Source: Mucilaginibacter sp.
GTDB taxonomy: Bacteria; Bacteroidota; Bacteroidia; Sphingobacteriales; Sphingobacteriaceae
Reading direction: 5' to 3'
Assembly: GCF_028287845.1 (NCBI RefSeq)
Contig: NZ_JAQBOW010000005.1
Span: 393 to 64,392 of the forward strand
DNA: 64,000 bases
Shown one piece after another: positions 12,955-58,811 of the stretch. Position 1 is the first letter of the stretch. Every line of letters starts with the position of its first letter. The notes under the pieces are model-generated. The model was not told where the DNA came from and did not search any database. It was given only the letters and a program-made list of their open reading frames with translations. The translations under genes and the position numbers were made by a program.

Positions 12955-14679
12955 TTATTGAACTATCGTGAAATTCTCAGATACATTCTTCATTTCCCGA
13001 ATATTTGATCGCTTAACATTTAAGCTACCATAGGCACCATTAGAGATGTATAGGCCATATCTGCCTTTTACACCAATTCCATAGTTTGAAATATTTATAT
13101 TTTGCAGGATAGTATTTGTTAACACACCGGTTTGCCCATCACCGTTTTTAGCAATTACACTTAATCCGTTCGACAGGCTGTTATCAATATTTAAGTTACG
13201 CATGTTAATACCTGCAATGCTACGCTTATCAATACATATCTCAACAGCGGCACGCCAATCCCATTCATGATCAAAGCCGCCGCTTGTTTTTATATCGCAG
13301 TTTTCAACAACCGTAGTACCGCTGAAATTATTATTGATGCGTTTGTCTTTACTTTCGGTTGGAAAGGTGGTGCTGATCAAAATAGCCGACCCCGGCGAAA
13401 TATCAACAAATGAACAATTACTTATTTTATTGCTTTCGCCCCCGTAAATAGCTGCCCCATTGGCCAAAAATGGCAATTGAGCGGTACAATTGATTATCAG
13501 ATTTTGCCCCGGCGAAAATTTTTGTACCTTAAACGTAGCGGGCCAAATGGCAAAGCAATCATCTCCTGTACCGCGCGCGGTGCAGTTTCTTATAGTAGAT
13601 TGGCTCATACCAACACAAAAATTTATACCATCGGCCATTGTATTCCGCATACGGCAATCGGTAATTTTTAAGTTTTGTGAATTTTCTACCCACATTCCTA
13701 CTTTCGTATGTTCGATCCAAATCCGTGAAATAGTGGAGTTTGTTCCATAAGATCCCACAATACCATCATTGGGTTCATTGTCTTTTCTATAATTCAGTTT
13801 TCCAACAATAGCAAAATCAGCAAGATGGATGTTACTGCCATCGCCTGTTAATCTTACCCGCCTGTTCATATTGGTATAAAGTGTTTCATCACCTGCCAGT
13901 ATGGAGTACCACATGCCTGCGCCCTGAATGGTTAAATTTGCCGGTACAATGATGTCACCAGTAATTTTAAACGTTCCGGCAGGGATCCAGACACTCTTGC
14001 CGGTTTCTATAGCCTTAGCTATGCAGTCTTTAAGCGCTTGCGTATAGTCCGTTGTAAGGCCACTTTCTGTAAAGGCTTTGTCAGTAATTGACAGGGAATT
14101 AACGGGCGCCTTTAATGGTGGTGCAATATCTTCAAGATCAACCAAATCAATTATGCTGTAACCAGCATCGTCGCCTTCCTGATCTTCGCGTTTTATGCTG
14201 ATCAGGTCGCCTTTGCGAACTTTCAAATCCTTTATTCGTACTTCGTCATAAAAGTGCCTGGGCACCCCTGCATCCGGGCTATTTGTAAACGGATATTTTC
14301 CATATAGCCAAGCATAATTCGATCTGATTTTACAATTCTTAATAAGTTTTCCATTAACGTATAGGCAAAGTGTGGAATTTGTACCGTTTCCATTCTTACT
14401 ATCGGGAAGACTGAAACGTATTACCATACTGTTAGCATTTGTATTGGATGTAAATACAATAGATTGTCCTTTTTCGCTCAGTTTTACACATTTTTGTCCT
14501 GACGATTCTGTTTCAACCTGGTATGGACCGTATTTGGGCCCCATGACAGTTCCGGTTGTTTTCATATCTTCTGCCTCGTATGTTGTCCAGGGAATAGTAG
14601 CACCACGGTTTTCCTGCGCCGGGCTAATAAATGTTTTAAAAACCAAAATAATGATGATGCAATTAAATTTGATACTCAT
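12955..14679 (-). CDS. GH87-like alpha-1,3-glucanase/mycodextranase (beta-helix)
   Basis: 'GATIPWTTYEAED', 'ANSMVIRFSLPD', 'NYAWLYG', 'PRHFYDE', 'WIEHTKVGMW', 'CRMRNTMADGINF', 'ARGTGDDCFAIW' match GH87 catalytic modules as I recall them. Signal-peptide start likely at 14679. Confidence 0.75.
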   Translation of the reverse strand: MSIKFNCIIIILVFKTFISPAQENRGATIPWTTYEAEDMKTTGTVMGPKYGPYQVETESSGQKCVKLSEKGQSIVFTSNTNANSMVIRFSLPDSKNGNGTNSTLCLYVNGKLIKNCKIRSNYAWLYGKYPFTNSPDAGVPRHFYDEVRIKDLKVRKGDLISIKREDQEGDDAGYSIIDLVDLEDIAPPLKAPVNSLSITDKAFTESGLTTDYTQALKDCIAKAIETGKSVWIPAGTFKITGDIIVPANLTIQGAGMWYSILAGDETLYTNMNRRVRLTGDGSNIHLADFAIVGKLNYRKDNEPNDGIVGSYGTNSTISRIWIEHTKVGMWVENSQNLKITDCRMRNTMADGINFCVGMSQSTIRNCTARGTGDDCFAIWPATFKVQKFSPGQNLIINCTAQLPFLANGAAIYGGESNKISNCSFVDISPGSAILISTTFPTESKDKRINNNFSGTTVVENCDIKTSGGFDHEWDWRAAVEICIDKRSIAGINMRNLNIDNSLSNGLSVIAKNGDGQTGVLTNTILQNINISNYGIGVKGRYGLYISNGAYGSLNVKRSNIREMKNVSENFTIVQ

Positions 14680-50079: not shown

Positions 50080-50129
50080 CTAAAACACAAAAGCCTGCAA
50101 TCAAATGATTGCAGGCTTTTGTGTTTTAG
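50080..50129. terminator. Bidirectional intrinsic terminator
   Basis: Perfect 24-bp stem CTAAAACACAAAAGCCTGCAATCA/TGATTGCAGGCTTTTGTGTTTTAG between convergent genes. Confidence 0.85.
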
Positions 50130-50148: not shown

Positions 50149-51702
50149 TCACCTAATTGGTGTTGCTTTTTCGAACGATTGCTGCTTATTACAACGATCT
50201 TGATAACTCATCGTTTCAGTAATATCCTGGAATATGCCGCGTATTTTTTCGCACTTTCCGTTAATAAATTCGGGGAAGCCGATAGATCTGACTCTAATAG
50301 GGTTACCCTTTCCGGTTATTATATCCATTTCAATATCAAAAGGGGTACAATTTTCAATTGCGTCTTTGCGTAGTTTTATAATCATATCTGAGCTGGCATC
50401 GTCTTTAAAAAACACAAAGGTATCATCCAGAACCGGATCAAAATCTTCCGGTACTTCCAATATTTCTTTCAATACTTTACTCCAGGTACCTGTATTGTTT
50501 TTAAAATCACGCTCCCAAGTCCCTATTCGTGTTATCGTAGTCGTTTTATTGAGCGCTGTGGATATTTGTTTATACTCTTCTTCTTTAAATTTAGTGTTTT
50601 TAAGCTCTTCGGTATATATTAATAAACCGCCAATAATGGTATCGCTTTTATACCATGGCCGTATGTCCCAACGTGCCCAGCCTAACGATCCGTCAATTTT
50701 TTCTATAAGATCCCCTTCCGAATGATCTATATTTCCTTTTAAACATAAATTAAGTTTGTGCTGATATTTTTCTTTTATTCGGGGCCACAGATCATATAAA
50801 CATTTGCCTATGTAACCTTTGTTTTGCAGCTTATATTCTATAACAAATTTCCGGGAAGCAGTTAAAAAACACAAGTCATTATCAACCATAGCGATAGCGA
50901 ACGGTGCCTGCTCAATGAAGGTTCTGTGCTTTTCATCATTTTCTGATTGAAGCTTATTTATAGATTTTTTAGCCGATAGATCATCAATATATTTATGATA
51001 GCAGGCTGAGAAATTTGAGGGGTTGGAAAAATTAAGCATGAGAGCCATCTGCCCTTTGTTTGCTCTTTTTGAGGTGATATAATCATGAGCCAGTTCCATT
51101 TGCAAAGTGCGGTAATACGCAAAAATAGTTTCGCCATACCGTTCTTTAAAATCTCTTTTCAATTTAGATTCAGAGATAAAATATTTTTTGGCAAGTAATT
51201 CAATACCAGGGAATCCGTCAAAAAGGTGTGATTTTAAATTTTCTACAACATCATTCAATATGTCTTTTATGGGTTTTAAGTCTTTGATCCTGTTATCAAG
51301 AACATGCTGTGGGTTGGTAATTGGTTTTTGGTTTAAATCACTAACATCCAAAACATTTACGTAAAACCCTTTTACTTCGCCGTCCTCAATATCCGGGAAG
51401 TAAATAGTCCTTGCTATTTTTTTCTGACCATTTGGCAATTCAATATTGCGGTCAAAAACACTAACTTTTCCACCTAATGCAGTATTAACATACCCTAAGT
51501 TTTGTTGATACAAAGGGCCCAATAATTCTCGTATATGTTTTTTATCAATTGGCCCTGTATGTTCAATACCAAACCAGTACATATAGGCTTTATTGGCATA
51601 TTTGCAAACCAAATCCTTGCCCCAGTAAGCCAGCATTGTATTTGTGTTTTCAGCCGCATTCAATCTTAACTCAATAAAAGTTTTATCGGTCTCAAATGAC
51701 AT
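50149..51702 (-). CDS. PAS-AraC HTH-PAS-PAS transcriptional regulator, paralog 1
   Basis: N-terminal PAS ('MLAYWGKDLVCKYANKAY..WFG'), central AraC double HTH (50989-51213), PAS ('FIEQAPFAIAMVD...RWDIRPW'), PAS/PAC ('RIGTWE...GIFQDIT'). No kinase or receiver domain. Confidence 0.8.
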   Translation of the reverse strand: MSFETDKTFIELRLNAAENTNTMLAYWGKDLVCKYANKAYMYWFGIEHTGPIDKKHIRELLGPLYQQNLGYVNTALGGKVSVFDRNIELPNGQKKIARTIYFPDIEDGEVKGFYVNVLDVSDLNQKPITNPQHVLDNRIKDLKPIKDILNDVVENLKSHLFDGFPGIELLAKKYFISESKLKRDFKERYGETIFAYYRTLQMELAHDYITSKRANKGQMALMLNFSNPSNFSACYHKYIDDLSAKKSINKLQSENDEKHRTFIEQAPFAIAMVDNDLCFLTASRKFVIEYKLQNKGYIGKCLYDLWPRIKEKYQHKLNLCLKGNIDHSEGDLIEKIDGSLGWARWDIRPWYKSDTIIGGLLIYTEELKNTKFKEEEYKQISTALNKTTTITRIGTWERDFKNNTGTWSKVLKEILEVPEDFDPVLDDTFVFFKDDASSDMIIKLRKDAIENCTPFDIEMDIITGKGNPIRVRSIGFPEFINGKCEKIRGIFQDITETMSYQDRCNKQQSFEKATPIR

Positions 51703-51941
51703 AGCAATCCTTTAAGTCTAAAAATTTAGGTATTCTTAAAATTTGTAGCGGCTTTTTGAACTTGAATCAGCTTTAATATAACAAAGCTGCAAAATTAATA
51801 TTAAAAAAATGCGGTATCTCGTCATTATTTTTAAAAGATATAGAACATATCTCTTATTTCCTGTGTACGAATGTGCAAAGTTATCCCCTCTTAGGCATAG
51901 CCAGGACGGTTTTTATGGTTGTTAAATTGGTATTAATTTTA

Positions 51942-52388
51942 TTAAACAGTAATTTCGCCATTGTTTTTTTGCTCGTGGCTTAGCAATTCATTAAATTTTT
52001 CTAATAATTTAATGTACCTGTCCATCCAATAATAAATGGGGTCTTTGGGTTTATCGCCGGGCTCGAGCAAATCGGCCATAACCTCGCCACTAAATAAGTT
52101 TGTTTTTTTTGCAAACTCTTCCGGAAAGTCCCTGGCAAAATCATGTCCTATTATAAAGCCTATTTTACAAATAATGTCAAGGCCTAATTCTTTTGTTTCA
52201 AACCAGTTGTACAGGGTTCGCCTACTAACATGTAGTCTTCTGGCTATTTCGCTAATGCCCATTCGGTCACAGCGTACCACACGCTCCAAAATCCGTCCCT
52301 GGTGCAATTCCGGTTTTTCTGCGGCATTTTTTGCAGATATTGTTTCAAACGCCGAATAATTTGCAGGATAATCGATATGGTTATGCAT
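51942..52388 (-). CDS. XRE/Cro-like helix-turn-helix protein
   Basis: 'MGISEIARRLHVSRRTLYNWF', then 'IGHDFARDFPE' and C-terminal helix 'YWMDRYIKLLEKFNELL'. Confidence 0.75.
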   Translation of the reverse strand: MHNHIDYPANYSAFETISAKNAAEKPELHQGRILERVVRCDRMGISEIARRLHVSRRTLYNWFETKELGLDIICKIGFIIGHDFARDFPEEFAKKTNLFSGEVMADLLEPGDKPKDPIYYWMDRYIKLLEKFNELLSHEQKNNGEITV

Positions 52389-52774
52389 ATTATTATAAAT
52401 TAATTGGTGAAAACTATTTTCATATTTACTGCTAAAGTTTTACTCATTAAACTAATTCATTATAAGCCGAAAATTTCAACCGTATTGATCATTTAACCAC
52501 AGTCAATAGAAACATGATCAACTCTATAATAATGGCCTTAAATATTTCTAATATAAATTTCGCTCGTATTGCACTATGAAACAACCTATTAGCGACCAAT
52601 TAATACCTGAAAAAGGTATTAATTTAATATTTTTTTTTCTTTTTTTATACTTTTTATAACCAGCAAGCACATGAAATTTGCTCAATATCAAGTAAAACCG
52701 AATAAAATTTAACAAATACTACTTGATTTACATCATATATTATGTTTATTAATTGAAAGTAAATAATAATATTT

Positions 52775-54244
52775 TTAATAACTTATATCATGAAATATTC
52801 CCGATATTTTTTCGCATTGGTCATTTTTAAATTCTGAATAGCAAATTAACCTTATCCGTTTTAAATTTTTCTTAGCTGTAATTAATTCCACTTCGATATC
52901 GAAAGACCCTCTTTTTTTGAATACATTATTTAATGAGCTTTTAACCAAATCGCGATTTTTACCTTGCTTGTAAAACTTTAACGAGGCTTCGAGGTTGGCT
53001 ATAACATAATCATCATCAACTTCTAATATTTCTCTTGTAATTTTACTCCAGACAGCTGTGTTTGTTATTGAATTTTGGTACCATGTACCTATACGTTCAA
53101 TTTCATTGGTTTTATTTAATATCTCAAAAAATTGTTTGTCTTTTTCTTCTGCCTGCTTTAAAGCTGTTATATCCTTGGTAAATATCAACACACCTCCCAC
53201 TTCATCAATATTTTTGTACCAGGGCTGTATATCTAATCTTATCCATCCCGGCGTTCCGTCTTTTTGTGTAACAGCAAGGTCAGCATAGTTATTAACTATT
53301 CCTTTTAACGAGTCGAGCTGAAGCGCTCTGAATTTTTCTTCAATGTTGGGCAAAACCTCGTTAAGACTTTTACCAGCCAATTCTGTATCGCTTAAATTGT
53401 ATTCGTTAAGCCATTTTTGTGAGGTTGTTATAAAATGCATGTTTATATCAAACAGAGCGACTGCAGCAACAGACTGTTCGACAAAATCCTTATAGTTTGC
53501 AAGGTTATAATTATTGATATCGCTTATATGCCTGTGTTCTAAATACTTTTTATAGCACGCTGAGAAGTTTGATGGATTTGAAAAATTGAACATCAAAGCC
53601 AACTGGTTTTTATTATACTTTTTGGCACTTAGATACTTGTTTGCCAATTCCATCTGCAAATTGCGATAGTACGCAAATATGGTTATCCCGTATTTTTCCT
53701 TAAAATCTCTTTTTAGCTTTGATTCTGATACATAATACTTCTTAGCAAGATTTGATATTCCCGGAAATCCTGTCAATACACTTGCTGCTAAGGCTTGTTG
53801 TATATCTTCAAGACCTTGATGATTGTGAGGCAAGGTCTTTTTTAGGTTATCATTTAAAGTCGGGTTAACAACATTATTCATATCGGCTACATGCACAAAT
53901 ATTCCTTTAACATCGTTTTCATCAAAGTCGGGCACGTAGGTTATCTTCGCATTTAATACCTTACCCGATGGTGTGGGGATCATACTATTAAAAATCTGTG
54001 TTTTACCATCAAACGCTGCTTTTATAAACGGGCCATTTTGTTTGTAAACCGGCCCTAAAAAATCACGAAGATTAATTTTATTTATCATCTGTTCGGGCAG
54101 GATTCCAAACCAATTAAAAACAGCATTATTAACAAAACGACAAATCAAACCTCTATCCCAATAGGCCAGAATTGTATTTTTATTCATATCAAATACTGAC
54201 ACGGAAGGGCTTTCGGTGCTATTGAATGGCATTTTTTTTTTCAT
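52775..54244 (-). CDS. PAS-AraC HTH-PAS-PAS transcriptional regulator, paralog 2
   Basis: Same domain order as paralog 1; AraC HTH at 53543-53767; ends 'SGIFHDISY*'. Confidence 0.8.
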   Translation of the reverse strand: MKKKMPFNSTESPSVSVFDMNKNTILAYWDRGLICRFVNNAVFNWFGILPEQMINKINLRDFLGPVYKQNGPFIKAAFDGKTQIFNSMIPTPSGKVLNAKITYVPDFDENDVKGIFVHVADMNNVVNPTLNDNLKKTLPHNHQGLEDIQQALAASVLTGFPGISNLAKKYYVSESKLKRDFKEKYGITIFAYYRNLQMELANKYLSAKKYNKNQLALMFNFSNPSNFSACYKKYLEHRHISDINNYNLANYKDFVEQSVAAVALFDINMHFITTSQKWLNEYNLSDTELAGKSLNEVLPNIEEKFRALQLDSLKGIVNNYADLAVTQKDGTPGWIRLDIQPWYKNIDEVGGVLIFTKDITALKQAEEKDKQFFEILNKTNEIERIGTWYQNSITNTAVWSKITREILEVDDDYVIANLEASLKFYKQGKNRDLVKSSLNNVFKKRGSFDIEVELITAKKNLKRIRLICYSEFKNDQCEKISGIFHDISY

Positions 54245-54307
54245 GGGAGTATTGATAAATCCCCGGAAGGCGGCGGTAAGGGGTACAAGTAGGTCGGGCC
54301 AGTAAGT

Positions 54308-56263
54308 TTATACGATCTCTGCAGGCATAGAACTTTTATCCAGCTTTTGATATTGAGAATTATTGCTGATAAAATCTGGTAGAATGGCTTTCATTTTACC
54401 AACCATTCCATCTACGTTATTTAGGAGGTTAATATCCAGTAACTCTTTAATTACGGTATTTATCTCGTCATAACAGTTGGGTATGGTTTTAGATATTTTA
54501 ATATCCTTATTATAGGTGGGTATAACAGTCTCGTTATCATTCAACAATTCTTCATAAAGTTTTTCTCCGGGCCTAAGGCCGGTAAAAAGTATTTTTATAT
54601 CCACATCAGGAACAAACCCTGCGAGTTTAATCATGTTAATGGCCAGGTCAGTTATTTTCACGGGTTTTCCCATATCAAAAATAAATATCTCGCCACCGTT
54701 ACCCATAACCGAAGCTTCAAGTACAAGATGCACGGCTTCAGGAATGGTCATAAAATAGCGGGTAATATCGGGATGTGTAACAGTTATTGGCCCCCCGCGT
54801 TCTATCTGTGCTTTAAACCTGGGAATAACAGAGCCGTTAGAGCCAAGCACGTTTCCAAAGCGTGTAGTAATAAATTTAGTTTTACATCTTCGGCTGTCCA
54901 CGCTTTTTGTATAGTTAAGCTGGTTGTATATAACCGAATTATTTAAGGCCTGAATATACATTTCGGCAATACGTTTTGATGCCCCCATAACATTGGTGGG
55001 CCGTACAGCTTTATCAGTAGATATCATGATGAATTTCTCTACACCATAGTCAACCGATATATCTGCCAGATTTTTTGTACCCCAAATGTTTGTCAGCACT
55101 GCTTCGGTAGGATGATTTTCCATCATTGGCACATGCTTGTATGCTGCGGCATGAAAAACAATCTGCGGCTTATAAAGATTAAAGAGTGCTTTTATCCGGT
55201 TTGAGTTTTGAATATCTGAAACAAATATTCGGCTTTTATGTGCATAAATACCATCCTCAAGCTCCAGTTGAATATCGTGCAATGGTGTTTCGGCCCGGTC
55301 GCATAACACAACAAACTCCGGGTTATATCCCATAATTTGCCGCACTATCTCTGCTCCTATCGAGCCGGCTGCACCGGTAACCAAAACCCTCTTGCCTTTA
55401 ACTTCACTGCATATATGCTCTTTACATAGTTGAATAGGCGCACGCTCTAACAGATCTTCGATCTTCAGATCTTTAAATTGATGCGAAGTTGGCATACCAT
55501 TTAGCCACTGGTTTGATGGAGCCACCGTTATCACCTTGATCCCGTACTCAATGCATTTTTCTACAGCACTTCTTTTACTGTCTGTATTAAGGTCCTCGGC
55601 TGTAATAAACATTGTTGATATGGAGAACTTTTGTTTCAAATTTTGGATAGACTTTACAGGGTGAACCTGGGTTTGCTCAATATATTTATACAGCTTATCC
55701 AAACCGGGATCAATAAAACCCTGTACGTTGATTAGCAAGCCTTTTTGGGTTTCGAGCGCCTTTTTTACCAATATGGAATGGTTTCCCGCCCCATATATTA
55801 AAACATTATCTCTCTTTATTGAAAAACCAGGTTCGTCAATGTATTTAAAAAGGTCTTTTATAATGATGCGCACGCCCATAAGCAAAGAGGACGAGATGAA
55901 AAAATTGACGAGTAAAATTGCGCCAAGCCCCGCCACACTAAAATAGGTACCAAATAATGACAAACACAGAAAAACAAACGACATGCTGCTTAGCAATACC
56001 GTAAACAAAACGCGCAGCATATCTCTGGTGTTCGAGTATCTTACAATACGGGTGTGTACTCGCATTAAAGTGAAAATTAAAAGCGCATTGCCGCAATACA
56101 ATGCCATATAAAACAGGTTGTCATGTTTTAGATTCAGTTTTCCCTTTAATGAAAACGATAGACAAATTGATGATATAACTATCAGCATATCTGTAAAAAG
56201 CACCAACCACTTGGAATGGAACTTATCTTGAAATAGTAAGTTTCTGATGTAGATCATAATCAA
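54308..56263 (-). CDS. CapD/PglF/WbpM-type membrane-bound UDP-GlcNAc 4,6-dehydratase
   Basis: N-terminal TM helices, 'IEDLLER', 'VLVTGAAGSIGAE', 'FHAAAYKHVP', 'STDKAV.PTNVMGASKR', 'RFGNVLGSNGSV', 'GLRPGEKLYEEL'. Confidence 0.92.
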   Translation of the reverse strand: MIMIYIRNLLFQDKFHSKWLVLFTDMLIVISSICLSFSLKGKLNLKHDNLFYMALYCGNALLIFTLMRVHTRIVRYSNTRDMLRVLFTVLLSSMSFVFLCLSLFGTYFSVAGLGAILLVNFFISSSLLMGVRIIIKDLFKYIDEPGFSIKRDNVLIYGAGNHSILVKKALETQKGLLINVQGFIDPGLDKLYKYIEQTQVHPVKSIQNLKQKFSISTMFITAEDLNTDSKRSAVEKCIEYGIKVITVAPSNQWLNGMPTSHQFKDLKIEDLLERAPIQLCKEHICSEVKGKRVLVTGAAGSIGAEIVRQIMGYNPEFVVLCDRAETPLHDIQLELEDGIYAHKSRIFVSDIQNSNRIKALFNLYKPQIVFHAAAYKHVPMMENHPTEAVLTNIWGTKNLADISVDYGVEKFIMISTDKAVRPTNVMGASKRIAEMYIQALNNSVIYNQLNYTKSVDSRRCKTKFITTRFGNVLGSNGSVIPRFKAQIERGGPITVTHPDITRYFMTIPEAVHLVLEASVMGNGGEIFIFDMGKPVKITDLAINMIKLAGFVPDVDIKILFTGLRPGEKLYEELLNDNETVIPTYNKDIKISKTIPNCYDEINTVIKELLDINLLNNVDGMVGKMKAILPDFISNNSQYQKLDKSSMPAEIV

Positions 56264-56268
56264 GAGAA

Positions 56269-57312
56269 TTAGGATGTTTGAAAAGCCGGCGTGTACCTGT
56301 ATAATGGGAAGAAGTCTACTTCGGTATTTTTATCAATACCCTTTTGATCAAGTAATTGCTGGTAGATAACCGGATTTGCTATATAGCGCCAGCTTTTATA
56401 GTCAAGAAGCAAATCAGAGAATGCTTTTTTCCAATAAAAAAGCGTGTCGTTTTGAAATCCAAGCCCCCCACCAAGATTATAATAACGCATCTCCAATTTA
56501 CAACCAATTTGTGCTATGCCATCAATTAAAAATTTTGCCGGGCTATCCTGTAGGTATTCGGTCCTTGTACCAATTAAATGCAATTGAATTATTTCATTGG
56601 TAAATACCGCAATTGTGCTGCTAGTAGCTACATCGCCTTTATATGCCGTAAATACCCGGGCGTCATATTCAGTATTGTTAAGCAGTTCTAAATAATAGCT
56701 ATCATCAAAAAAGTACGAGTCGGCAGCTCTTATCCTACTCATATTCTGGTTATAAATTTCGCGGAAAATTTTAATTGCGTCCGGCCCTTTCTCTTCTTTA
56801 ATATAGTAACCCTTTTTTAATGAGTTTCTAATACTGTCCCAGGTTGTATGTCTATAATTCTTTCGGTGCTGTTCAATGCTTTTAGTGAGGTCAATAACTA
56901 CTACCTGGCCATTGTCGTAAATACCGCCAAATTCCTCAAGCAGCAATTGTTGGTTATAAAAGGGGTTCAACCTCAAAAACACTGAAACATAATTTCCGTC
57001 TGATAAAAATTCAAGAAAAGCTTTTTTAAAATTGCTTATCAATGTTGAATCAATACCATCCATTTTTTGGTTTGATAGCGGTCCGGAGTACCCATATACA
57101 CAGGTCAAGTCATAGTAATTTGATTCCGGTATCTCGCGTTGAATAAGCGGTACGGCAATAAAATCAGATTGTTCACTATAAATAAATAAAATTGGCAAGC
57201 CTGTATTATCAAGCGAATGATAATGCCACGTATGATAAAAATCAATTTCTACCGATTGATTTACATGCGCTACCCACTCGGCTTTATCCTTAATAGTTAA
57301 TATTTTGATCAT
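56269..57312 (-). CDS. FemAB-like GNAT-fold acyl/aminoacyl transferase
   Basis: 'DFYHTWHY', 'YDLTCVYGYSGP', 'SVFLRLNP', 'YFFDDSYY', 'YNLGGG', 'LFYWKKAFS', 'FFPLYR'. Confidence 0.7.
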   Translation of the reverse strand: MIKILTIKDKAEWVAHVNQSVEIDFYHTWHYHSLDNTGLPILFIYSEQSDFIAVPLIQREIPESNYYDLTCVYGYSGPLSNQKMDGIDSTLISNFKKAFLEFLSDGNYVSVFLRLNPFYNQQLLLEEFGGIYDNGQVVVIDLTKSIEQHRKNYRHTTWDSIRNSLKKGYYIKEEKGPDAIKIFREIYNQNMSRIRAADSYFFDDSYYLELLNNTEYDARVFTAYKGDVATSSTIAVFTNEIIQLHLIGTRTEYLQDSPAKFLIDGIAQIGCKLEMRYYNLGGGLGFQNDTLFYWKKAFSDLLLDYKSWRYIANPVIYQQLLDQKGIDKNTEVDFFPLYRYTPAFQTS

Positions 57313-57324
57313 AGGTGGATTTAT

Positions 57325-57843
57325 TTAGGTGCTGATTAATTTAAATAAAGGCTCAATTTCGATGAAACGATCCCTGGAAATACTCATCGTAATATTGCCG
57401 TCATCTTTACCTGTTATTTCAAAGCCCGCCCTTTCATAAATAGATATGGCCGCAATATTTGCGGGGTGCACTTTCAGATAAATAACTTCAAGTTTTCTTT
57501 CAAAGAAACCATACCTAAGCATCAACACGGTAGCCTGGAAACCTATACCCTTACCCCAGTAAAGTTTGTTGCCGATAAACAGATGCAGCTCAGCACTCTT
57601 CCCTTGAAAATCAAGCAATTGAACATTTCCTACATAGGTATCAAGCTCTTTAACGCATATCGCAAAACGGCTTTGGTCGGGTTTATTCAAATTATTTCTT
57701 AGCCAATCAAGTTCCATTTCTTTGGTGATAACTCTATTTGGTTTAAACCCGGTATAAGTCCACACCGATGGGTCGTTTCGCCATAAATAAGATACTTCAG
57801 CATCTTCAAGAACCAGTGGCCTTATGTATATTGAAATGATCAT
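57325..57843 (-). CDS. GNAT N-acyltransferase (RimJ/L- or PseH-like)
   Basis: 'IRPL..EDA..SYLWRND', 'YVGNVQL', 'IGNKLYWGKGIG', 'N.AAISIYERAGF'. Confidence 0.85.
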   Translation of the reverse strand: MIISIYIRPLVLEDAEVSYLWRNDPSVWTYTGFKPNRVITKEMELDWLRNNLNKPDQSRFAICVKELDTYVGNVQLLDFQGKSAELHLFIGNKLYWGKGIGFQATVLMLRYGFFERKLEVIYLKVHPANIAAISIYERAGFEITGKDDGNITMSISRDRFIEIEPLFKLIST

Positions 57844-58811
57844 AAAAAAGTGCGTAAAGTATTTAAAATATAAAGCATATCATGTAGGCTATACCTATGG
57901 TCGATAGGCAATGGAACAATACAGCGTGCCAGGTAATTTTCATACATCCGGGTATCAGTCCACTTAAAAACATTCGGCCAATAGGTGGCCACATAAATAT
58001 TATGTTGGATCAAATGCAATTTAAGCTGCTTGTTATTTGACAAAAACGGATAAACCATTGGTGAGTATTCTTCCGGAAAATTAAACTTGAATAAATTATA
58101 TTCCTTCAAATGTTTGTGAAGAAAATTAAAGTTCCGTTTTCTAATCCTGGCGCATTCTGCATAATTAACACCTGCAAGGATCTTCCGCGTTAGGGGTGAC
58201 ATGATCCTAATCGGATTATTCTCCAGGTCTTTATTGTTTTTTACATAATCACTATATCCTTGTTGTACACCCAGATCAATATTTTTAATAAGATGCGAGA
58301 AGCGATTTACCGAACTGTCAACAGCATATTTTTTAGTTGATTTTTTTTTAATTTGCAGATATGCCCCATCAGCAACACCAAAGAATTTCCTGCACGAGTA
58401 AAAGGTATCAATACCGGGCAATGGTTCTGAAAAAAAGGCCTGAGAATTATCTATTATAAGGTTAGTTATCTTAGTACTCAAGCACTTAACTGCGTGCTGT
58501 TTAATGCCAAAATAGTTGGTATACAAAAAAACGGCATCGGGCTCTATCTCAAAATCAATAATTGGTTCCAGGTGATCATCAATTGAGTAAAATTGGTATG
58601 GAATATTCAATTTTTGGATAGGCTCCAGCAATACATCGCATGTAAAATATGGGATATAGATTTTCTTATATCCTTTTTCTCTCAAAATATATTCTAATGC
58701 ATTTCTCCCGGTATTCAACCGTATAAGGTGCGTGTAATACTCACTCCCAGGAGGAAGTTCCAAACCGAAATACCCACCAATTGTTAAGTGTGAAGTTTCT
58801 ATTTTTTGCAT
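57840..58811 (-). CDS. Divergent DegT/DnrJ/EryC1/StrS-like PLP-dependent sugar aminotransferase
   Basis: 'TGRNAL', 'YIPYFTCD', 'YTNYFG', 'IIDNSQAF', PLP-lysine loop 'FYSCRKFFG..DG', 'LPIDHRY'. Confidence 0.65.
   Translation of the reverse strand: MQKIETSHLTIGGYFGLELPPGSEYYTHLIRLNTGRNALEYILREKGYKKIYIPYFTCDVLLEPIQKLNIPYQFYSIDDHLEPIIDFEIEPDAVFLYTNYFGIKQHAVKCLSTKITNLIIDNSQAFFSEPLPGIDTFYSCRKFFGVADGAYLQIKKKSTKKYAVDSSVNRFSHLIKNIDLGVQQGYSDYVKNNKDLENNPIRIMSPLTRKILAGVNYAECARIRKRNFNFLHKHLKEYNLFKFNFPEEYSPMVYPFLSNNKQLKLHLIQHNIYVATYWPNVFKWTDTRMYENYLARCIVPLPIDHRYSLHDMLYILNTLRTFL

Follow-up and report, generated by a model that had tools for sequence, protein, structure and literature searches.

A family of PAS-AraC regulators without kinase domains and a conserved candidate promoter at the end of a polysaccharide locus of Mucilaginibacter

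What is controlled by two multidomain PAS-AraC regulators that flank a small helix-turn-helix (HTH) protein at the end of a polysaccharide operon? This question is raised by a stretch of 64,000 nt of Mucilaginibacter sp. DNA, here termed the window, in which the polysaccharide biosynthesis gene capD is followed by the genes for RegA, HTH148, and RegB. Mucilaginibacter and Pedobacter are known for abundant exopolysaccharide (EPS), and to our knowledge the regulation of its synthesis in soil Sphingobacteriaceae, such as these two genera, is essentially unstudied. A preliminary description of this DNA considered the three genes to form a one-component circuit with multiple inputs that controls EPS or capsule synthesis. 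The reading that we favor and hold to be reasonably probable is that dimers of the Reg proteins activate the promoter preceding the HTH148 gene, and that HTH148 is the output regulator, probably acting on the neighboring polysaccharide genes. What is new is a conserved predicted promoter that adjoins the Reg genes, by which a candidate target becomes sharply defined. The module offers a testable entry to EPS regulation, in the form of a defined family of regulators, one predicted 43-bp site per genome, and a defined downstream regulator. The coordinates of all features are given in Table 1.

Domain content of RegA and RegB

RegA and RegB can be aligned end to end with 42% identity (E value of 3e-133). 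The AraC double HTH that the preliminary description had placed between an N-terminal PAS domain (N-PAS) and two further PAS domains was recovered in both proteins. The Pfam HTH_18 profile matched mid-protein with 48.3 bits in RegA (residues 166-236) and 42.6 bits in RegB (residues 170-238), at a gathering cut-off of 33.6, and the NCBIfam models SoxS, AraC, and RhaS align over residues 146-240, corresponding to the entire double-HTH domain. PAS_4 was also detected above its cut-off (residues 255-363 of RegA and 264-367 of RegB). Pfam scores were weak for the N-terminal and last PAS domains; both form clear PAS folds in an AlphaFold model and match PAS sequences of FixL and LOV-HK. This model was generated with 53 homologs as input and has a mean predicted local distance difference test score of 82 and a predicted template modeling (pTM) score of 0.38, at which the arrangement of the domains is unreliable. 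It contains three PAS folds (the PAS fold being defined as a five-stranded antiparallel sheet with flanking helices) at the residues listed in Table 1, a disordered linker (125-142), seven AraC helices (142-256), the last of which continues directly into the second PAS domain, and a long helix (360-382) that connects the second to the third PAS domain. Best Foldseek matches were tandem-PAS sensors, namely, Brucella LOV-PAS-HK, DosP, PpsR, NifL, FixL, and MmoS. In profile comparisons against the PDB, the second PAS domain matched 3LUQ (E value of 2.7e-35) and the third FixL (9e-7), and, among solved structures, the AraC domain came nearest to that of a "hybrid two-component system protein" (12aw; 3e-7).

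Both proteins thus possess the domain of about 100 amino acids with two HTH motifs that is characteristic of the AraC/XylS family; however, this domain is not C-terminal, as is usual in that family, but followed by some 250 residues that form two PAS domains. HisKA and HATPase domains were absent from RegA and RegB in the Pfam and NCBIfam scans, so that neither qualifies as a sensor histidine kinase. Both had been described as stopping right after the last PAC strand, which holds for RegA (...GIFHDISY), whereas RegB carries a tail of 22 residues after GIFQDIT. These data support the prediction that RegA and RegB are kinase-less, cytoplasmic one-component transcription factors with an unusual domain order.

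Conservation is unevenly distributed over these domains. In the family alignment the DNA-recognition helices of the AraC domain are nearly invariant (SESKLKRDFK and NFSNPSNF) and form the most conserved segment of the protein. RegA and RegB have almost identical DNA-reading helices and divergent sensor domains. Within the PAS domains, Cys35 (in YWDxxLICRFAN) is invariant and Cys477 nearly so. The invariant CRF is reminiscent of LOV domains, a reading that was rejected because Cys35 is located in the second beta strand and not in the E-alpha helix that holds the LOV motif NCRFLQ. A FixL-type heme was also discarded, given that the F-alpha helix has no conserved His in the alignment. The conserved cysteines, together with the gene neighbors of family members outside EPS loci, hint at a redox or stress signal; that the PAS domains sense redox state or gas is conjecture.

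A small family with kinase relatives

A search of 5.8 billion proteins returned about 100 full-length homologs, indicating that the genes are real and not chance open reading frames (ORFs). The named homologs are mostly from Mucilaginibacter, with some from Parafilimonas and unclassified Bacteroidota, and are annotated only as "PAS domain S-box protein". When residues 1-245 were searched exhaustively against 1.84 billion cluster representatives, 45 matches were obtained at an E value of 1e-30 or better; about 50 matches among these representatives cover N-PAS plus the AraC domain, and N-PAS alone is found in hundreds of kinases. The RegA/RegB family is a small, uncharacterized, and taxonomically narrow family of Bacteroidota. 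In agreement with the preliminary description, which had not recognized a described system with this architecture, searches of a literature library retrieved no paper on a PAS-AraC family of such kind.

A scan of one genome per species identified 215 relatives. The AraC-type members have the architectures PAS-AraC (236-278 amino acids), PAS-AraC-PAS (346-404 amino acids, mainly in Pedobacter), or PAS-AraC-PAS-PAS (490-515 amino acids), and the first of these corresponds to the usual AraC layout. In the family tree, short forms nest within clades of long forms, which indicates that the C-terminal PAS domains were lost repeatedly: the 245-residue protein of L048 (the loci of relatives bear codes of this type) joins those of L022 and L031 (504-513 residues), and L006_9444, of 404 residues, is inside the RegB clade. 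RegA, which belongs to a clade of 18 members, is orthologous by position to the capD-adjacent Reg, and RegB is in a separate clade.

Another group of relatives, of 877-1019 amino acids, was found in Cyclobacterium, Fulvivirga, Imperialibacter, and a Chitinophagaceae bin, i.e., in Cytophagales and Chitinophagaceae. These proteins possess HATPase_c and an H-box and lack HTH_18. They keep N-PAS, PAS_4, and PAS_3 (34% identity over 482 aligned positions), have a PAS_9 domain exactly at the position of the AraC domain, and then continue into one further PAS domain and a kinase. The suggestion that a sensor kinase would continue where the Reg proteins end is therefore corroborated by natural examples. 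Sequence comparison makes the evolutionary link of RegA and RegB to multi-PAS kinases clear, and the family illustrates clearly how a domain can be replaced between sensor kinases and one-component regulators. An AraC domain in the middle of a PAS array also bears on how PAS domains transfer signals to output domains on either side.

The genome from which the window derives holds only two full copies, RegA and RegB, and one small kinase-like ORF with the same N-PAS. The latter, a 372-residue ORF outside the window (G000:C161:131802-132467), shares 43% identity with the N-PAS module, including the YWD...CRF motif, and its homologs, of about 345 amino acids, are small PAS-HATPase kinases. One sensor module thus feeds both kinases and AraC regulators.

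A conserved candidate promoter beside the Reg genes

K-mer counting on the regions upstream of HTH148 genes revealed a motif, termed the Reg-box, with the consensus CCTTtTACAGGTATAAtTTGaCCTTTtATAGGTTGaa, which consists of two direct CCTTtTAyAGGT units with a period of 21 bp. A matrix derived from HTH148 upstream regions alone also finds the box beside Reg genes that have no HTH148 (L008, L013, L015, L022, L040, L047, and L048). At a threshold of at least 30 bits, the box was present in 28 of the 34 long-form AraC loci, in none of the 6 kinase-type loci, and in none of the 15 loci with N-PAS alone. All 28 long-form hits are on the strand of the Reg gene; 26 of them are located 7-528 bp past its stop codon, and the other two precede an HTH148 gene that itself precedes Reg.

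The box is also rare within genomes. A position weight matrix built from other genomes only, with the window excluded, gave a single strong match in the 3.7-Mb genome of the window, with 42.6 bits as compared to 15.4 for the next best site and a maximum of 14.3 in the shuffled genome. Among the complete genomes of relatives (6.3-8.1 Mb), four were matched exactly once by a degenerate pattern, in every case at the known site, and this pattern had no match in a fifth.

Bacteroidota sigma-A promoters have the spacing TTG-N19-21-TAnnTTTG. A TAnnTT[TC][GA] box follows the proximal AGGTTG after 19-21 nt in 27 of 33 non-redundant instances, and an alignment of 12 diverse intergenic regions showed conservation only in the Reg-box and the -7 element. 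The region thus has a predicted sigma-A -33/-7 promoter geometry. The sigma-A -7 box spans positions -12 to -5 (PMC9723704). The predicted start of the HTH148 transcript is near 52549, about 5 nt past the TAAATTTA box, leaving a 5' untranslated region of about 161 nt, in which no Rfam match to a structured element or riboswitch and no conservation beyond the promoter were detected. A scan for sigma-70-type promoters did no better than on shuffled sequences and is unsuited to Bacteroidota.

In Pedobacter, Parafilimonas, and Chitinophagaceae a diverged box (GAGCA...AyAGC / GAGCATCAGTAGGTT) occupies the equivalent place, and it accompanies altered recognition helices (SVSKLMRDF and NPANF, as compared to SESKLKRDF and NPSNF). 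The ACCT-N5-AGGT sequence was initially considered a hairpin acting as RegA terminator; this was dismissed, as the conserved feature consists of the direct repeats and the -7 box and the region is without significant RNA structure.

HTH148

The gene behind the box encodes a protein that had been described as XRE-like. This is supported at the level of fold: the best Foldseek matches are the XRE-type domains of HipB, ImmR, ClgR, SinR, and Stl, with probabilities of 0.97-0.99 but E values of 0.1-0.6, and homologs are labeled "XRE-family HTH" by JGI. It is not supported by sequence profiles, since HTH_3 (XRE) reaches only an E value of 0.15, whereas HTH_23 passes with 27.2 bits at a cut-off of 24.6. 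HTH148 is single copy in its genome according to tblastn. It has 94 homologs, of which all named ones are from Mucilaginibacter, Pedobacter, or unclassified Bacteroidota.

Synteny and other genomic contexts

The block consisting of a 323-residue ORF, GNAT, a FemAB-like ORF, capD, Reg, and HTH148 was found in 33 of 61 non-redundant AraC-type loci, from Mucilaginibacter and Pedobacter, so the position next to capD, at the end of a polysaccharide locus, which the preliminary description had singled out for checking, is kept across two genera. On the tree the EPS context is clustered (none of 500 shuffles was as low) and occurs in several deep clades. About half of the family resides in other contexts, beside genes for REC-only, Usp, and REC-cNMP-Crp proteins and PAS kinases; further neighbors of these members are nitroreductase, BON, and FtsH genes, and one member is beside a nos cluster.

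Gene order varies. Most genomes have one Reg and one HTH gene, and the Reg-HTH-Reg arrangement is confined to the window and its close relatives L011, L006, and L012; the three-gene form is a lineage-specific duplication. In the Pedobacter loci L053, L054, and L061, two HTH148 paralogs flank a single Reg of 363-370 amino acids, a mirror image (HTH-Reg-HTH), and in L034 the order is capD-HTH-Reg.

Proposed mechanism and its alternatives

The box tracks Reg rather than HTH148 and is missing where the AraC domain is missing, from which we infer that the box is bound by Reg dimers, which thereby activate the gene that follows. The PAS domains would dimerize the Reg protein and take in the signal or signals, and the two AraC domains of the dimer would occupy the two direct repeats, 21 bp apart. 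The overlap of the proximal repeat with the -33 element would make the dimer a class-II-type activator of the HTH148 promoter. Tandem direct repeats spaced by 21 bp, of which the proximal one overlaps the -35 equivalent, are the classic layout for AraC/XylS activators, and the Reg-box, with its tandem units overlapping the -33 TTG, is a candidate site of this type. HTH148 would then act on further genes, and the conserved synteny makes the adjacent polysaccharide synthesis or modification genes its probable targets. As the regulon predicted from the motif is a single promoter, any effect of Reg on polysaccharide genes would be exerted through HTH148. The RegA gene is upstream of the box and would probably be expressed by read-through from capD; the RegB gene is downstream of it behind HTH148, and since there is no terminator between these two genes, RegB may be under positive feedback. 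Given that RegA and RegB have like DNA-reading helices and differing sensors, two inputs would converge on one promoter.

A more far-reaching version of this mechanism is put forward tentatively, as a possibility that we regard with some doubt. In it, a kinase-derived PAS array was rewired by the exchange of a PAS for an AraC domain and obtained a private promoter directly 3' of each gene. The cassette would then be a latch with two sensors and one promoter, in which RegA is expressed by read-through from the operon and both HTH148 and RegB, located behind the Reg-box, are under positive feedback; it would couple operon transcription and a redox or stress cue to an XRE-type regulator.

Several points weigh against activation of the HTH148 promoter by Reg dimers. 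A different factor might bind the box, the co-variation of DNA-binding domain and box is essentially one contrast between clades, and the proximal repeat of the window is degenerate in its 5' half. The distance from the box to the HTH148 ATG is long (about 160-300 nt) and unexplained. The low pTM score mentioned above leaves the relative placement of PAS and AraC domains unreliable, the link between HTH148 and the polysaccharide genes is drawn from synteny, and the sequence runs that hold this genome, a soil-metagenome bin, are of DNA only, with no RNA runs.

The circuit of the preliminary description differs from the mechanism favored here in that RegA, RegB, and HTH148 would each bind promoters of the polysaccharide locus directly, forming a multi-input EPS or capsule switch. 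The one-component character is retained, as the Reg proteins lack a kinase, and the adjacency to capD, GNAT, the FemAB-like gene, and the 323-residue ORF in the 33 loci of Mucilaginibacter and Pedobacter, as well as the MBOAT O-acyltransferase pair that often follows HTH148, agrees with such a switch; weaker or different sites are also possible. However, we consider direct control unlikely, since the sole conserved candidate site precedes HTH148 and occurs just once in this genome and once in each of the four complete relatives, and since elsewhere the same family with the same box is predicted to drive genes for REC proteins, Usp, a Crp-type regulator, and kinases. The other contexts of the family might alternatively be taken to mean that the cassette is a general redox or stress unit that rides at the 3' end of a polysaccharide operon, with HTH148 controlling genes unrelated to polysaccharide. 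The Usp, nitroreductase, BON, FtsH, nos, Crp/Fnr-type, and REC genes beside members outside EPS loci and the conservation of Cys35 and Cys477 would fit, but the Reg-HTH148 pair adjoins capD in several clades and in two genera, far above chance, and the named HTH148 homologs have the restricted distribution noted above; we judge this explanation to be quite improbable.

In a further alternative, the Reg-box is not a site for the Reg proteins: it would serve another factor as operator or an alternative sigma factor as promoter, and Reg would act mainly via PAS-PAS contacts with kinases, its AraC domain being vestigial. A short dyad (ACCT...AGGT) is indeed present within each unit and might accommodate a symmetric dimer, and the N-PAS module is common to many small kinases, one of them in this genome. 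Nevertheless, this is very unlikely, given that the box tracks Reg genes with or without HTH148 and is absent from kinase-type loci, that conservation within the protein is highest in the AraC helices, and that the -33/-7 geometry is of the sigma-A type, with a sigma gene absent nearby.

Comparison with known systems

Members of the AraC/XylS family bind asymmetric repeated sites near the -35 element of their target promoters. The class II activators include AraC at I1-I2, XylS at Pm, RhaS, and MelR. The Reg proteins resemble these activators in having a complete double HTH of about 100 amino acids and a gene that adjoins the predicted target, and in a predicted site of two direct repeats with a period of 21 bp, the proximal one over the -35 equivalent. 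They differ in that their DNA-binding domain is central rather than C-terminal, in that sensing is assigned to three PAS domains and not to an N-terminal ligand domain such as a cupin, and in that the promoter is of the Bacteroidota -33/-7 type.

A second group for comparison is that of PpsR/CrtJ, a redox-responsive repressor with three PAS domains, and NifL-type tandem-PAS sensors, which are likewise kinase-less and cytoplasmic and carry several PAS domains connected by long helices; the RegA model gave fold matches to both PpsR (4hh2) and NifL. The conserved Reg cysteines suggest thiol chemistry. However, in PpsR the HTH is C-terminal and of the Fis type, an AraC domain is lacking, and the sequence relationship to RegA and RegB is limited to the PAS fold. 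In the hybrid two-component systems (HTCS) of Bacteroidota and in ChiS-type DNA-binding sensor kinases an AraC-type domain is fused to sensor modules, as in Reg, and the kinase relatives described above have three PAS domains in common with RegA and RegB. Unlike HTCS and ChiS-type proteins, RegA and RegB have no periplasmic sensor, HisKA/HATPase, or receiver domain, and their AraC domain replaces a PAS domain inside the array instead of being appended C-terminally.

SinR controls an exopolysaccharide operon in Bacillus. SinR-type regulators have an XRE-fold HTH and a C-terminal helical segment, and the same is predicted for HTH148, but sequence homology is undetectable, as judged from the HTH_3 and Foldseek E values given above. 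The Bacteroides UpxY/UpxZ system consists of a NusG-like antiterminator and a small inhibitor at the 5' end of the locus. The profile scans gave no NusG-type match here; in contrast to UpxY/UpxZ, the cassette is at the 3' end of the locus, and its proteins are of the PAS-AraC and HTH types.

Layout of the locus and neighboring genes

Between 50149 and 56263 there are four co-oriented minus-strand ORFs, with the cassette following capD at precisely the places and with the short gap that the preliminary description had given.

Table 1. Positions of the cassette, its domains, and the predicted regulatory elements in the window
Feature	Position	Strand	Size	Description
capD	54308..56263	-	651 aa	PglF-like type; Polysacc_synt_2, E value of 3.7e-113; polysaccharide biosynthesis
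capD-RegA spacer	54245..54307	-	63 bp	From capD stop to RegA ATG
RegA	52775..54244	-	489 aa	N-PAS, AraC double HTH, PAS_4, PAS_3-like
RegA N-PAS	53882-54175	-		Residues 24-121
RegA AraC double HTH	53525-53821	-		Residues 142-240
RegA PAS_4	53171-53464	-		Residues 261-358
RegA PAS_3-like	52787-53092	-		Residues 385-486
Reg-box	52578..52620	-		Upstream of HTH148; two direct units, 21 bp apart
Distal Reg-box unit	52605-52617	-		ACCTTTTTCAGGT; about -68 to -56
Proximal Reg-box unit	52584-52596	-		GTCGCTAATAGGT; about -47 to -35
Candidate -33 element	52582-52584	-		TTG, overlapped by the proximal unit
Predicted -7 box	52554..52561	-		GAAATTTA; consensus TAnnTTTG
HTH148	51942..52388	-	148 aa	AlphaFold model: five-helix HTH of XRE-like predicted fold, residues 30-94; long C-terminal helix, residues 117-141
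RegB	50149..51702	-	517 aa	RegA paralog; identical order PAS, AraC, PAS, PAS
Hairpin	50080..50129	.		Perfect 23-bp stem; -36.9 kcal/mol, z -11.2; between convergent RegB and GDSL-lipase genes

CapD is the final biosynthetic gene of a long minus-strand operon that reaches the end of the contig; the locus continues in L087. The spacer between capD and RegA has a predicted RNA folding energy of -7 kcal/mol (z +2.27), i.e., it is less structured than shuffled sequences, and a terminator scan found none in it, so RegA is probably read through from capD and thus co-transcribed with the polysaccharide operon. RNA fold analysis detected no significant structure downstream of RegA or of HTH148. The hairpin is a bidirectional terminator that closes the cassette and is common to RegB and the convergent GDSL gene. 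It is not a leader; sub-threshold matches to the Rfam model Thr_leader on both strands at this position are due to the perfect 23-bp stem. With an unstructured spacer at one end and a hairpin only after RegB, the whole cassette may be read through from the operon.

The genes upstream on the same strand encode an Epimerase-family protein (Pfam; NAD-dependent epimerase/dehydratase), a pectate-lyase-like protein, GT4, a PhyH dioxygenase, the 323-residue ORF (57840-58811), GNAT, and the FemAB-like ORF of 347 residues (56269-57312). The 323- and 347-residue ORFs had no Pfam match at an E value of 1e-5. Both are conserved alongside capD in the loci of Mucilaginibacter and Pedobacter, relatives of the 347-residue ORF show faint matches to FemAB and Acetyltransf_6, and the two proteins may be amino-sugar modifying enzymes.

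In 16-19 Mucilaginibacter loci, HTH148 is followed by genes for an MBOAT O-acyltransferase (AlgI/DltB-like) and a 317-residue partner without Pfam match, as in L018 (12692-15100) and 15-18 others; the pair is absent from the window. The two resemble a pair for polysaccharide O-acylation and may belong to the transcript that starts at the Reg-box promoter. A gene of the window for a 491-residue GT-C protein had been considered a homolog of the conserved 483-residue protein encoded after HTH148; the latter is the MBOAT and is unrelated.

Additional boxes were noted in some loci. Two successive Reg-boxes are found in the non-EPS loci L008 (11611 and 13618), L013 (11558 and 12048), and L040 (11516 and 12107), each preceding a REC-only or Usp gene, which suggests small local regulons of signaling or stress genes. 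In L012 a weaker Reg-box-like site (20 bits, at 13939) directly follows the RegB-like gene, at the place where the window has its terminator. In L006 (10677-15865 of a GCA_016853205.1 contig, from a relative of 68% identity) and in L007, the second Reg gene is directly followed, on the opposite strand, by genes for a bacteriophytochrome histidine kinase (PAS_2-GAF-PHY-HisKA) and a multi-PAS kinase of 951 amino acids, raising the possibility of a light input in this lineage.

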